From assembly GCF_006345805.1 (NCBI RefSeq), contig NC_043000.1, positions 117,986,001-118,050,000 on the forward strand: DNA of 64,000 bases. Reading direction: 5' to 3'. The stretch's first letter is position 1. Each line of letters begins with the position of its first letter. This document shows, in pieces, positions 1,180 to 58,930 of the stretch. The stretch is from Octopus sinensis (taxonomy: Eukaryota). Below the pieces are notes generated by a model. That model worked only from the letters and a program-made list of their open reading frames with translations, had not been told where the DNA came from and did no database searches. The translations under genes and the position numbers were made by a program.

Positions 1180-1657
1180 TTACGCACTGGGATCGATATA
1201 ATCGACTTAATCCATTTATCTGTCTTTGTTTGTCCCCTCTGTGTTTAGCCCCTTGTGGGCAATAAAGAAATAAGAAACGTTAGCACGCTAGGTGAAATGC
1301 GTAGCCGTATTTCGTCTGCCGCTACGTTCTCAGTTCAAATTCCGCCGAGGTTGACTTTGCCTTTCATCCTTTCGGGGTTGATAAATTAAGTACCAGTTTC
1401 GCACTGGGTCGATGTAATCGACTTAATCCGTTTATCTGTCCTAGTTTGTCCCCTCTGTGTGTAGTCCCTTGTGAGCAGTAAAGAAATAGGTATTTCGTCT
1501 GCTGTTACGTTCTGAGTTCAAATTCCGCTAAGGCCGACTTTGCCTTTCATCCTTCCGTGGTCGATAAATTAAATATCAGTTGCGTACTGAGGTCGATCTA
1601 ATCGACTGGCCTCCTCCACCAAAATTTCGGGCCTTGTTTCTAGAGTAGAAAAGAATA
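1180..1657 (+). mobile_element. SINE family A trimer (tail1 | head-body-tail1 | partial head-body-tail2)
   Basis: Repeated core gagttcaaattccgccgaggtcgactttgcctttcatcctttcggggtcgataaattaagtaccag with B-box-like GAGTTCAAATTCC. Tail1 is ttgtcccctctgtgtttagccccttgtgggcaataaagaaata and tail2 is ccaaaatttcgggccttgt..tagagtagaaaaga. Confidence 0.9.
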
Positions 1658-2148
1658 TAATATTTCCTTGAGGTAATGACTGCCAATGAGGTAGTCAATA
1701 CGTGGTTTCTTTACCTGTTAGAAATAGTAGCCAAGATTTCTATAAAATCACTCAATACGGTTTTAAGACGTGACGATTATGTTGTTCAATATATTTGTTT
1801 TAATATTGATTATATCTGAAAATGTGATAGGAAGGAGACTGTTTAAACATCTTTATTCATACATGAATTCTGTTGCGGTTCACCTACGGCAGGTTTTCTC
1901 AATATCTTGTAGCTCAGCCCCTTATTTTACAGAATGTCGTATTTCACTGACGCTCATCTCCCATGTTTTGGACACAAAGCAACAGCAACACAATCACAGA
2001 GCAAATTATTTTATTCAGACAGACCTAATTTTGTGCAGTGGTATAATTAGCTAGATTTTTCTTTTTAGTTTTTGCGTGGACTAGTGACCCCTGTGTTAAA
2101 TAATTAGGGAAATTACTAAAGAAAATAAGGACCTAGTGAAATTATATT

Positions 2149-3250
2149 AGGCGTAGGCATGGTTAAAAGGTTAAAAACTTTTGATTGCTACCCATAGGGT
2201 TTCCGGTTCAGTCCCGCTACGCAGTACCTTAGGCAAATATCTTCTATAACAGACATGGTTGATCAAAGTTGCCTCAGCAAATCTGATCGACAGAAACTGT
2301 GGAAGCACGATATATATATATATATATATATATATATATATATATATATATATATATATATATATATATATAATATATATATATATATATATATAATGTA
2401 TATATATATACATATATATATACATATATACATATATATATATATATATATACATATATATATATATGTATATATATATATATATGTGTGTGTGTGTGTG
2501 TATATATATATATATATATATATATATATATATATATATATATATATATATATATATATAAAGAGGTTTGTATGATTGTGTATAGAGGGATATATATTAT
2601 TCAAAGAAATTCCAACTCTGTTTTTTATGTTTTATTTATATTCTTTATAATATTAATGTAGAATGTAGAATATAGAATATATAGTATAAATAATATATAT
2701 ATATAAAATGAAATGAAGTATTGATTGTCTTATTGAATAGATGAAATATCGAATATAAAATATCAAATATTAAGGGACTAGTATACTTTCTTGCATTACA
2801 ACAGTCTTCAAGGTCCCAGGTTGTGACAGGAGTGTCACACACACACACACACACACACATACATATATATATATATATATATATATATATATATATATAT
2901 ATATATATATATATATAGAGAGAGAGAGAGAGAGAGAGAGAGATAGATAGATAGATAGATAGATAGATAGATAGATAGATAGATAGATAGATAGATAGAT
3001 AGATAGATAGATAGTTAGATAGATAGTGTGTGTGTGTGTGTGTTTGCCTTTATACTTGTGCTCTGCCCTCATCACAACTTGACAACCCGTGTCTGTTTAC
3101 GTTTCAGTAACTTAGCGGATCAGCATGCGAGACCAAGACAGCAAGTACCAGATTTATAAATAAGTACTGGGGTACATTTTTTCCACTTCATCCGCAAGGT
3201 GGTATCCCAGTATGGTCGTAATCCAGTGATTGAAAGGAGTAAACGATAAT
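2149..3250 (+). mobile_element. SINE family B (CORE-like), decayed head (2149-2310) and tail (3040-3250) separated by expanded microsatellites
   Basis: Head ggttcagtcccgctacgcagtaccttaggcaaatatcttcta and tail gacaacccgtgtctgtttacgtttcagtaacttagcgg...gtggtatcccagtatggtcg both match the intact copy at 56874-57277. Confidence 0.6.
2310..3042. repeat. Compound microsatellites (TA)n, (CA)n, (GA)n, (GATA)n
   Basis: Read directly from the sequence. Confidence 0.95.
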
Positions 3251-3287
3251 ATATATATATATATATATATATATATATATATCATTA

Positions 3288-3424
3288 AGGGTTTCTAAGA
3301 GATACCAACATTCCAGAGATAGCAGTCAAAATTTGACTCTAAAACTACGACACGATATATGAAGTGGTTTTAGTGTCAAGTTTTGACTGCTATCTGTTGC
3401 ATGGTGGTATTTCTTAGATACCCT
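3288..3424. repeat. Fold-back inverted repeat, ~61-bp arms and 15-nt loop
   Basis: agggtttctaagagatacca...tctaaaactac versus gtggttttagtgtcaag...tttcttagataccct. Confidence 0.85.
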
Positions 3425-3529
3425 GATTTATAATTTTAATAATAATTAATACCAATAAGGTTTTTATTCACATGCTGGCCACTTGATATGATCGGTATTT
3501 TAAATAACGATCTTATGCTTATATATATA

Positions 3530-56313: not shown

Positions 56314-56705
56314 TCTATATAAATAAAGCTGAAGTTGTCTGTGTGTGGCAGGTTTGGCAGCCTTCAACTAACACTATCTCCTCCGAGACCCTGCGGAGCA
56401 AGTTGACCAAAATTGAGAGTATGATAGAAGAAGGCTTACTCTTTATTCCGTAGAAGAAAAAATTCAAATCGGACCATGTTAACACCAAAAATTATTTACA
56501 TTAAAAAGGTGGGGGGTTTTTCTATGAAAATCCCTATTTTTTACGATGTTTCGACTGCTGTGTCGCCATTTTTCGGTGTATTTCAACCAGAAAAATGTTC
56601 ACTTGAAGAGAATAACAAGCTACTTAATGCAAAATTTATACTTTTCAAAAATTCCAATTCTAAAGGGTCAAAACAAACCCGAACAACGCCGGGCGATACT
56701 GCTAG
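56314..56705 (+). mobile_element. Non-autonomous Helitron
   Basis: A|TC start (tctatataaataaagc), 3' hairpin-like cccgaacaacgccggg, CTAG|T end, no TSD. Confidence 0.88.
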
Positions 56706-56873
56706 TTTTACTATAATTCAACAAGCAACATTACAAGTTAAGTAGAAACATGCTACAAGGCTAGAGGTCAGAGGTGAAATATTTAGAGGAAGAACTTCAG
56801 TCAAGCAAGTGTTTCGACCCATTTCTTCCTGACACTCTAAGAGAGCCGGGTACACTTAGGTAATGACTTCTAA

Positions 56874-57277
56874 GGCGTAGGAGTGGCTGTGGGGTAAGTA
56901 GCTTGCTTACCAACCACATGGTACTGGGTTCAGTCCCCCTGCGTGGCACCTTGGACAAGTGTCTTCTACTATAGCTTCGGGCCGACCAAAGCCTTGTGAG
57001 TGGATTTGGTAGACGGAAACTGAAAGAAGCCCGTCGTATATATGTATATATGTATGTGTGTATATGTTTGTGTGTCTGTGTTTGTCCCCCCCAATATCGC
57101 TTGACAACCAATGATGGTGTGTGTGTTTACGTCCCCGTAAATTAGTGGTTCGGCAAAAGAGACCGATAGAATAAGTACTAGACTTACAAAGAATAAGTCC
57201 TGGGGTCGATTTGCTCGACTAAAGGCGGTGCTCCAGCGTGGCCGCAGTCAAATGACTGAAACAAGTAAAGAGTAGAG
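56874..57277 (+). mobile_element. SINE B full-length reference copy (CORE-like)
   Basis: tRNA-like head with gggttcagtccc, CORE-like caccttggacaagtgtcttc, a central TA/TG microsatellite, and a tail ending gactgaaacaagtaaagagta. Confidence 0.92.
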
Positions 57278-58580
57278 TCTCTTGATACTTTCGAAGTGCT
57301 GTTTTAGTGGTGATTGAACTTGGGACTTTCTGATGATATTTTTTTCCCTGAATTGTGGTTTATATAACACTCGGCCCCAAAGACCACTGAAAATACTTGC
57401 ACTGTGCATCGATTTAAATGTTAAATGAGATTGGAAAAGATTTCAAATTAGAAATTAAACCCAATGAAAATATTTTCTTTCTGTCCCCGTAACTTAGCGG
57501 TTCTGCAAAAGAGACTGATAGAATAAATACAAGTCTTTTAACAAAATCTGGGGACCGCTCGTTCGACTAAACATTTGGAGGCAGTGCTTCAGCATGATCG
57601 TAGTCCAGAGACTGAAGCAAATAAAATTTAAACGAGAAAAGAGAAATAGAAAAGCAATGCTCTAGAATGGCCGTGACCGTGATGGCTAAGGCAACCAAAG
57701 CAATAAATAATGAATTCAAGTATATAACATTTCTATGATGATCCTATTTAATGGCTAACGAAATATAAATCATCACCAGTTTATGTAATGCCGCATAAAT
57801 TGTAAATTGATCTATACGTTTCGCCTGTCATTTTCTATTTTAGTTTCACTTCACTTGAAAATATATTTATTACAAGTTTCTATGAACGCAGTCCCTTTGT
57901 AGGTGTGGGGCCAAGCCCCTGCTGTTGTGGGGGATCTCAGAGTACTGAAAAGAGACGAAGACATTGCAAATAAAATTAAGATTGGTTTTAATCATTTTAC
58001 ACTTGTTAATCATGACGGTGAAGAAAAGAGGTTCTGGATACAAGCTCTATTCTGTATTTTCATTAATCAAGACGAGAATGTGGGTATTAGTATTTGGTGA
58101 CTGCTGATATTTGTCAGTTTTAGAATCACTTAATCAGTCCTCCAAAGCAGGGCCCAGCAACCACCAGCCAGGATCATTTAGTGCCGGGCCTCATAGAAAG
58201 AATGAATTTAAAAATTTTATTTATATTTTATTGACCATCGCAGTTTGCAGGGTGTTTTTGCATTACATATATGTTACATGTGTAATAATTAAATTATATA
58301 TTACGCAACTTATTGAATTTTGTTATGCGTTTGGTTTCCCGGTCTAAGGGGAAAATGTCTTGCGTGAAACCGTTCTGTGGGGATCACTACCGTAATGCGA
58401 AAAAAACACTTTGTTACTAGTCTGCATCAAGGAAATTATACATGTTTCGGTAACAGAGTAGTCTAGAAAGTTTAGCTGTGTGCGTACATATTAGTCACTC
58501 TTCTAACGTTGAGGAGAACTAACATGGTGAACTTTCAGGGCAGATTTGACAAACTGAATTATTCTTCCTTCCCACTACAA

Positions 58581-58930
58581 TATTTTTCTTTACTACCCAC
58601 AAGGGGCTAAACACATAGCGGATAAACAAGGACAGACAAAGGGATTAAGTCGATTACATCGACCCCAGGGCGAAACTGATACTTTATTTATCGACCTCGA
58701 AAGGTTGAAAGGCAAAGTCGACCTCGGCGGAATTTGAGCTCAGAACGTAACGACAGACGAAATACCTATTTCTTTACTACCCACAAGGGGCTAAACACAG
58801 AGGGGACAAACAAGGACAGACAAAGGGATTAAGTCGATTACATCGACCCCAGTGCGTAACTGGTACTTAATTTATCGACACCGAAATGATGAAAGGCAAA
58901 GTCAACCTCGGCGGAATTTGAACTCAGAAT
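58581..58930 (-). mobile_element. SINE A dimer, 5'-truncated
   Basis: Junction gaaatacc|tatttcttt at ~58767. Confidence 0.92.

Follow-up and report, generated by a model that had tools for sequence, protein, structure and literature searches.

Copies of an Octopus sinensis SINE are joined at two fixed head positions, probably through repeated insertion into resident copies of the same family

Related systems and the octopus repeat

One of the closest described counterparts of the system treated here is found in crocodilians, where SINEU-3, a short interspersed element (SINE) likely mobilized by a Tx1-type enzyme, and the Tx1-Mar long interspersed elements (LINEs) occupy a fixed site in an abundant repeat and form tandem copies by sequential insertion (PMC4494074). 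The target there is Mariner-N4_AMi, and the tandem copies sandwich a target site duplication (TSD) (PMC4494074). We analyzed a 232-nt SINE in a 64,000-nt stretch of Octopus sinensis DNA (contig NC_043000.1, positions 117,986,001 to 118,050,000; here called the window) and across the genome. It resembles the crocodilian elements in likely Tx1-type mobilization, in the fixed site within an abundant repeat and in apparent sequential insertion, but its target appears to be its own head, with two allele-specific sites and mostly a single head left. A preliminary description of the window had proposed either that a Tx1-type enzyme repeatedly targets these two sites or that a few master dimers or trimers were amplified as units; our results support the first proposal and contradict the second.

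Other tandem SINEs share part of this picture. In the clam Scapharca broughtonii, arrays of the form TSD1-(SINE)n-TSD1 likewise start with a complete tRNA head, continue with units cut at the same head position, and lie within one TSD; about 3% of the copies are tandem or palindromic, the inner tails are truncated, and unequal TSD recombination has been suggested (PMC11481361). In the octopus, by comparison, 52 of 114 tail1 elements are multimers, their tails are complete, and the partners belong to differing subfamilies. The SINE-derived satellites of squamates are also tandem repeats of part of a SINE that are more uniform in longer arrays, but they have been ascribed mainly to unequal recombination and are often subtelomeric (PMC10702118), whereas octopus arrays start from a fixed insertion site, and tens of thousands of dimers are scattered over the genome. 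The dimeric SINEs Alu, B1-dID, and Twin also hold two monomers inside one TSD, but they derive from one fusion and have linked arms (PMC3531059), while the octopus arms are unlinked. Kibi and Koshi are Tx1 families that target microsatellites (cited in PMC4494074), and an octopus LINE sharing the tail of the SINE likewise lies in one microsatellite type, in this case (TATC)n, the likeness being one of domains and target. We conclude that the octopus SINE works like a target-specific, Tx1-mobilized SINE and is neither a classical dimeric SINE nor a retrozyme. Our literature search, with most subscription papers and Repbase outside it, turned up no description of a SINE that targets its own head, nor of these octopus multimers; the supplements or library of an octopus repeat annotation (PMC13282606) may include this SINE family.

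The majority monomer, built from 147 near-full-length copies, consists of a head, a predicted 13-bp hairpin (positions 32 to 61), a body, and a tail (tail1); in a sister form, everything past position 167 is replaced by a second tail (tail2). A-box-like and B-box-like motifs were spotted by eye in the head. ARAGORN and Rfam detected no tRNA, and Rfam at E values of up to 10 gave two chance matches only, both outside SINEs. The unit contains no run of four T (T4), so transcripts could read through its end. The OK SINE of octopus, reported by Ohshima and Okada in 1994, is said to be tRNA-related and of about the same length, and we treat its identity with the present SINE as a lead only. The repeat may also resemble the MetaSINE superfamily. 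In that superfamily, a 66-bp Meta domain lies behind the tRNA head (PMC4824008). SINEBase describes SINEs as shorter than 1 kb, with at least 100 dispersed copies, and as non-coding, with a LINE-derived 3' region and TSDs; the octopus repeat is 232 nt long, has 93,741 exact tails, is non-coding, ends like LINE 3' ends, and has TSDs with a median of 16 bp (92 loci). For the head, SINEBase calls for at least 60% identity to tRNA, 5S, or 7SL RNA across 60 nt or for proven polymerase III transcription.

The window (G+C content of 35%, microsatellite-rich) lies on contig C4 of a searched genome of 2.72 Gb. We read contiguous blocks totaling 1.064 Mb, namely, the window, the adjoining 400 kb, 400 kb of contig C1, and 200 kb taken arbitrarily from contigs C2 and C3. 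This sample is not fully random because the C1 portion was picked in or near match-rich regions. Divergence from the reference was counted without CpG and diagnostic sites.

Tail-to-head junctions at two sites

Exact genome-wide matches comprised, beside the 93,741 tails, 23,627 junctions at which a tail is followed by G(G/A)TATTT (site B) and 1,977 at which it is followed by AGAA(A/T)CGTTA (site A), while reversed junction patterns gave 0 matches, so the junctions are not due to chance. Site A corresponds to position 16 and site B to position 49 of the majority monomer, which agrees with the spacing of about 33 nt given in the preliminary description. Among 154 tails in the blocks, 57 joined exactly at position 49, 10 joined exactly at position 16, and 77 had no junction; the other 10 joined at different offsets, which in most cases amounted to A or B plus a small indel. 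The 114 tail1 elements in the blocks included 62 monomers, 42 dimers, 7 trimers, and 3 longer arrays. Furthermore, the site-B joint was present in assembled contigs of four sequencing runs (four organisms) and site A in those of three, which has no bearing on expression. The junction is thus a real, genome-wide feature. Retroelements have been regarded as target specific when more than 20% of their flanks lie in one repeat (PMC4494074); of the 115 T-type tails found in the blocks, 65 ended at site B, a share that exceeds this threshold if, as we infer, the junctions represent insertion events.

Which site was joined could be predicted from the tail allele (position 220): among typed junctions, T preceded site B in 146 of 152 and C preceded site A in 34 of 37 (P = 7 × 10−28). 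Tail2 preceded site B in only 1 of 8,921 exact ends and was otherwise terminal. A similar polarity was seen behind terminal tails, where the letters belong to the TSD in solo copies: GGT followed 35 of 59 T-type tails versus 1 of 40 C-type tails, and AGA followed 12 of 40 C-type tails versus 3 of 59 T-type tails. In addition, 6 of 30 T ends matched the site-B continuation for at least 6 bases, against a background of 0.0002. Either the read-through end of the RNA pairs with the target, or two enzymes with differing preferences serve the two alleles.

Next, we looked at whether the units on the two sides of a junction are inherited together. Among 105 adjacent unit pairs in short arrays, 104 distinct haplotype pairs were found. 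Linkage was strong inside units (mean r2 of 0.103, null of 0.010) and absent across the junction (r2 of 0.0103, null of 0.0099, P = 0.39), and 0 of 9,131 locus pairs had two or more rare variants common on both sides. Sharing of at least one rare variant was slightly above expectation (139 versus 117.5, standard deviation of 9.8), and upstream alleles showed an association with the type of the downstream unit (at two of seven sites, P = 0.001), which may stem from times when both were active. We relied on linkage because a Mantel test comparing the similarity of upstream units with that of downstream units lacked power; its positive control failed too. A complex (dimeric) SINE goes back to one fusion whose parts are inherited together; here, there was neither cross-junction linkage nor any sibling pair.

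Of the 11 junctions previously cited in the window, 10 are real, whereas the one at 44018 is a solo T-type monomer (44021 to 44240, minus strand) followed only by GGTATTT and (AT)n, with no dimer. Site A follows a tail at 1272/1273 and 4741/4742 (plus strand) and at 27989 and 28135 (minus strand); site B does so at 1488/1489 and 36055 (plus strand) and at 25077, 26241, 48223, and 58767 (minus strand). As also described before, the downstream partners carry either tail1 or tail2. On the plus strand, a 5'-truncated tail1 unit with a C-type tail (1179 to 1272, monomer positions 139 to 232) ends at a site-A junction and is followed by a tail1 unit starting at site A (1273 to 1488, monomer positions 16 to 232), whose C-type tail is a rare one before site B, and by a tail2 unit starting at site B (1489 to 1653), the final unit of the trimer. 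A tail1 fragment (4699 to 4741, plus strand, monomer positions 190 to 232) likewise ends in a site-A junction with a tail2 unit (4742 to 4939). Two T-type units that lack their 5' ends have site-B junctions at their ends: one (35888 to 36055, plus strand, monomer positions 65 to 232) precedes a tail2 unit beginning at site B (36056 to 36214), and the other (58767 to 58929, minus strand, monomer positions 70 to 232) precedes a T-type unit from site B (58585 to 58766), around which we looked for a TSD and found none.

Three dimers lie on the minus strand. The first unit of each of two of them consists of a head and a T-type tail (25077 to 25307 and 26241 to 26471), and the second units, both from site B, carry a T-type tail (24893 to 25076) and a C-type tail (26064 to 26240), respectively. 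The TSDs reported around these two dimers hold (18 bp with 1 mismatch and 23 bp with 3 mismatches), while that around the third is weaker (15 bp with 2 mismatches). In the third dimer (first unit, 48223 to 48454; second unit from site B with a C-type tail, 48034 to 48216), an additional GAAATA lies at the junction (48217 to 48222); this doubled-GAAATA variant, a duplication of the priming type, occurs 1,044 times genome-wide and was found on 24 haplotypes among 32 loci. Correcting the earlier account, we assign the junctions at 27989 and 28135 to an internally deleted unit of 146 bp that is present in tandem: two such C-type units, each with a site-A junction at its end, are followed by a decayed unit (27989 to 28281, minus strand). 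The reference seed was a solo full-length tail1 monomer with a 13-bp TSD (6273 to 6495, minus strand).

Origin of the junctions and alternative explanations

An open nested signature, consisting of site B, a short duplication, and a second head, was found 188 times genome-wide, compared with 9 times for a control of the same design at the B box and 21 times for the same signature at site A; part of the 188 matches are tandem repeats of one event. These insertions keep both heads and amount to about 1% of junctions. We fetched 30 such loci, of which 24 were usable, 5 being excluded for overlap and 1 for lack of a tail. Site-B sequence followed the insert in 20 of these 24, and in those 20 the host was older than the insert (divergence of 0.107 versus 0.025). 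None of the 43 headed multimer units in the blocks had the open nested form. Open self-insertion is therefore real but rare. Moreover, new full-length copies sit at an existing tail-to-site-B junction at loci L197, L198, L200, and L210, indicating that junctions stay targets. At another group of loci (L190 to L196, L324, L329, and L330), the head alone (positions 1 to 62 or 1 to 64) is repeated two to five times before a full unit, which is likely the result of open nested insertion followed by local duplication.

Tail1 matches the 3' end of LINEs that have endonuclease, reverse transcriptase (RT), and zf-RVT domains. With domains read from separate open frames of broken copies, Pfam PF03372, PF00078, and PF13966 passed the cutoff, and PF00098 fell just under it (19.9 versus 20.8). 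The Tx1 clade has this domain set (an ORF2 with an APE endonuclease, an RT, and a C-terminal zinc-binding domain and an ORF1 with a zinc knuckle), and judging by these domains, we call the partner LINEs Tx1-like; the homologs retrieved for them carried no family names. The excess of nested insertions over the control, the unlinked partners, and the tail common to Tx1-like LINE ends support the earlier suggestion that a Tx1-type enzyme repeatedly directs the SINE to two sites in its own family.

We then compared the ages of the parts of single-headed multimers. The head (positions 5 to 48) diverged at 161 of 2,710 sites in 92 site-B multimers versus 37 of 1,247 sites in 42 T-type monomers (P = 4 × 10−5), and body divergence was the same in both (0.033 each). 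The head excess was also significant per locus (P = 0.0002) and among gap-free units (77 and 32 units, P = 0.025). In multimers, the head and the TSD were about twice as diverged as the body of the first unit, and in 33 arrays with a tail2 or older last unit, the head (0.073) was about as diverged as the last unit (0.071), with 0.038 for its own body. TSDs, which could be located in 49 of the 89 multimers with a head and in 36 of the 57 monomers, had more mismatches in multimers (47 of 835 versus 19 of 652, P = 0.011) and were less often perfect (16 of 49 versus 21 of 36). The whole-dimer TSDs, which had been taken to fit master dimers as well, are thus older than monomer TSDs and fit the original TSD of a host copy. 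Furthermore, the first unit was younger than the last in 18 trimers and tetramers (0.035 versus 0.055, P = 0.0095), as it also was in 59 arrays whose last unit carries tail1 (P = 0.016). In 56 heterotypic dimers, derived variants common to both units were in excess at positions 50 to 65 (23 versus 13.9) and 66 to 95 (12 versus 4.1) but not at 96 to 129; in 19 site-A arrays, units shared variants at positions 17 to 31 and 49 to 65, as well as 96 to 165 (23 versus 13.8). An older head, TSD, and last unit around a younger first body are jointly predicted only by a model in which the new copy enters an older resident copy.

We consider it probable that a Tx1-like LINE enzyme inserts the SINE into resident copies in place, with the 5' end seamlessly resolved on the old head. 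A Tx1-like ORF2 protein would bind the SINE tail and nick a resident copy at site B or A. Transcripts lacking a T4 terminator would run on into GGUAUU, and the read-through end of the RNA (GGUAUU or AGAAA) would pair at the nick and help choose the site. The cDNA, primed at the nick, would extend back through the body and then anneal to or switch onto the host top strand at about positions 49 to 95, whereby its own head copy would be lost. Because the host top strand past the nick is identical to the cDNA, the 5' end could be finished by in-register annealing, a homology-rich case of the models proposed for 5'-truncated L1 insertions (PMC2912911, PMC10760644). The product would consist of the host head, the new body and tail, and the host remainder, within the old TSD of the host; since the head and the site are rebuilt, the step could repeat. 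A dimer TSD would then be that of the host and would give no support to master dimers. Arrays of at least five units would grow further by local DNA duplication, and a minority of composites would be recopied as whole units. More tentatively, we propose as a possibility RNA-guided homing, in which the read-through 3' end, perhaps together with the entire body, would pair with a resident copy and fix the insertion base according to the allele, the insertion then being finished seamlessly on the old head. If so, the SINE would possess a self-renewing pathway, similar to homing, that explains about half of the insertions of the subfamily and leads directly from SINE to satellite.

The TSD around a dimer, usually taken as proof of one insertion, would here likely mark the oldest unit only, and misreading it would mislead the dating and subfamily calling of such repeats. 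In addition, these tens of thousands of natural events could inform how non-LTR elements pick their targets (by enzyme or by RNA pairing) and how 5' ends are joined when target and cDNA are homologous, and they suggest a stepwise, testable origin of SINE-derived tandem repeats.

Several observations weigh against insertion into resident copies by a Tx1-like enzyme. The later tests added loci picked by junction patterns, so that their sample is partly junction selected. In arrays with a tail1 last unit, the head (0.052) was more diverged than the last unit (0.035), which simple inheritance from the host does not explain, and the correlation between head and last-unit divergence was weak (rho = 0.16, P = 0.12). 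Linkage testing within the head yielded no information, sites 20 and 44 being unlinked even in monomers. Deletion scars at the expected 5' joint were not enriched (2 of 117 versus 1 of 61), and only 15 of 59 informative second-unit variants at positions 60 to 69 were found again in the first unit. The first unit began past position 12 in 21 multimers (in one of them at 13); 2 of these have a TSD, indicating that some composites were copied as units, and the other 19 may reflect target deletion or later loss. As for the enzyme, one LINE family has its end followed by (TATC)n in 30 of 30 loci, so that its target is a microsatellite rather than the SINE, and it may not be the lineage that mobilizes the SINE; a pattern search for the tail of this family at site B gave 9 matches, all of them SINE-like.

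An unlikely alternative is that rare open nested insertions seed composites, with transcription running from the inner head into the host tail and whole units being copied from many hundreds of source loci. Open nested loci exist, the lack of a T4 run makes read-through possible, upstream units are younger than their tail2 partners (0.033 versus 0.068), two 5'-truncated dimers have a TSD, and many founders would likewise yield no linkage. However, such copying predicts a head as young as the body and a fresh TSD, and both are older. Open nested hosts are, moreover, far older (median of 0.078) than the partners in single-headed multimers (0.037), sibling composites numbered 0 among the 9,131 pairs, and about 1% of loci would need to yield nearly half of all copies.

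We give little credence to template jumping, in which the RT, having copied one SINE RNA up to site B or A, would move through short pairing to the 3' end of another RNA, and the resulting concatemer would be inserted in a single event. The units and the TSD should then share one age, but their ages differ; solo 5' truncations do not pile up at position 49 or 16 (of 29 truncated first units, 1 starts at 50, and the 1 at 16 is a junction); and the variants shared by first and second units at positions 50 to 95 are left unexplained. It does account for single heads, one TSD, random partners, and allele-specific junctions, site B lies inside the predicted 13-bp hairpin, and human L1 ORF2p makes template-jump concatemers in vitro (PMC10830420). 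Stalling of the RT at the two sites was rejected, as there is no hot spot among solo truncations. The potential junction hairpin GAAATA-GG-TATTTC folded no better than shuffles (z = 0.05), and the head fold reached only a z of −1.6 against shuffles. Internal priming on a long read-through RNA was also rejected, with no clear TSD seen by eye at the break in 28 arrays with a 3'-partial last unit.

Less probable still is exchange at the DNA level, by which a monomer would gain a unit through out-of-register gene conversion or unequal crossover with a distant multimer and no retrotransposition would occur. This would likewise leave the head and the TSD old and the inner unit younger, and DNA-level events clearly operate in long arrays: in 8 of 9 arrays with at least five tail1 units, variants were common to subsets of units, some of them periodic, which indicates expansion by local DNA duplication. 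Nevertheless, exchange leaves unexplained the open nested insertions at the same base, the starts of solo TSDs that match the site, and the recurrent GAAATA slippage, and its switch points would spread across positions 49 to 232, whereas sharing is confined to 50 to 95.

Rolling-circle reverse transcription of a unit circularized as RNA from site B to the tail, as proposed for retrozymes, is very improbable. The fixed 184-nt period, arrays of up to 15 units, and one star-like 5-mer would suit it, but retrozymes have a self-cleaving ribozyme in each unit, and here neither strand showed a hammerhead core and Rfam gave no ribozyme match; furthermore, units within a short array are almost as different from one another as are units taken from separate arrays, long arrays show block patterns, and most arrays start with a head, which a circle would lack. 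Last, a few master dimers or trimers that arose once and were amplified as units would fit the tight linkage of the junction to the adjacent tail allele and the single head and TSD of each array, but we hold them to be scarcely credible given the 104 distinct haplotype pairs at 105 junctions, the linkage that is strong inside units and absent across the junction, and the existence of downstream partners of three kinds, every kind having alleles of its own 13 to 15 nt from the junction.

Tail-sharing LINEs, long arrays, and other features

In the window, a Tx1-like LINE 3' end (34343 to 34982, plus strand), comprising the ORF2 C terminus and the 3' untranslated region, represents a candidate partner lineage; it has 39% protein identity to the (TATC)n family, and its last bases match tail1 at 40 of 48 columns. 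At locus L010 (682 to 940), a LINE 3' end with a C-type-like tail is joined at SINE position 50 and heads a four-unit array. Neither a general RT search nor an inspection of 20 of its loci yielded a LINE carrying tail1 or tail2, the two strong tail1 matches being SINE copies. Another Tx1-like ORF2 C-terminal fragment in the window (14408 to 14731, minus strand) is 63% identical to P0001, and no tail was found behind it. Elsewhere, some Tx1-like LINE copies have open frames of 1,100 to 1,200 amino acids; other Tx1-like ends with related tails precede microsatellites of other types, (TCA)/(TCT)-like and (TAC)n (L064 and L161); and on C3 (80.05 to 80.07 Mb, L066 and L067), full and truncated Tx1-like LINEs are stacked in one orientation with (TATC)n between them.

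Only a minority of the arrays have the at least four uniform inner units of a SINE-derived satellite: 2 of the 114 block elements had at least 6 units, and one 15-mer was found. This 15-unit array (L321, C1, 171.836 to 171.839 Mb) lies in one TSD and has a doubled GAAATA at most of its 14 joints. A tail variant recurs in its units 1, 4, 7, 8, 11, and 14, and it contains many single-base gaps, which are possibly assembly errors.

SINE copies in opposite orientation adjoin or lie inside one another in the window (4699 to 5063 and 19717 to 19925) and at loci L013, L110, and L148. A second abundant SINE-like family, present at 7476 and 54663 in the window, ends in similar AAAGAATA repeats and gives false tail-motif matches. 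Finally, a 200-amino-acid open frame in the window (4064 to 4666, plus strand) is a fragment of a Tc1/mariner-type DDE transposase (Pfam DDE_3, E value = 8.6 × 10−13).

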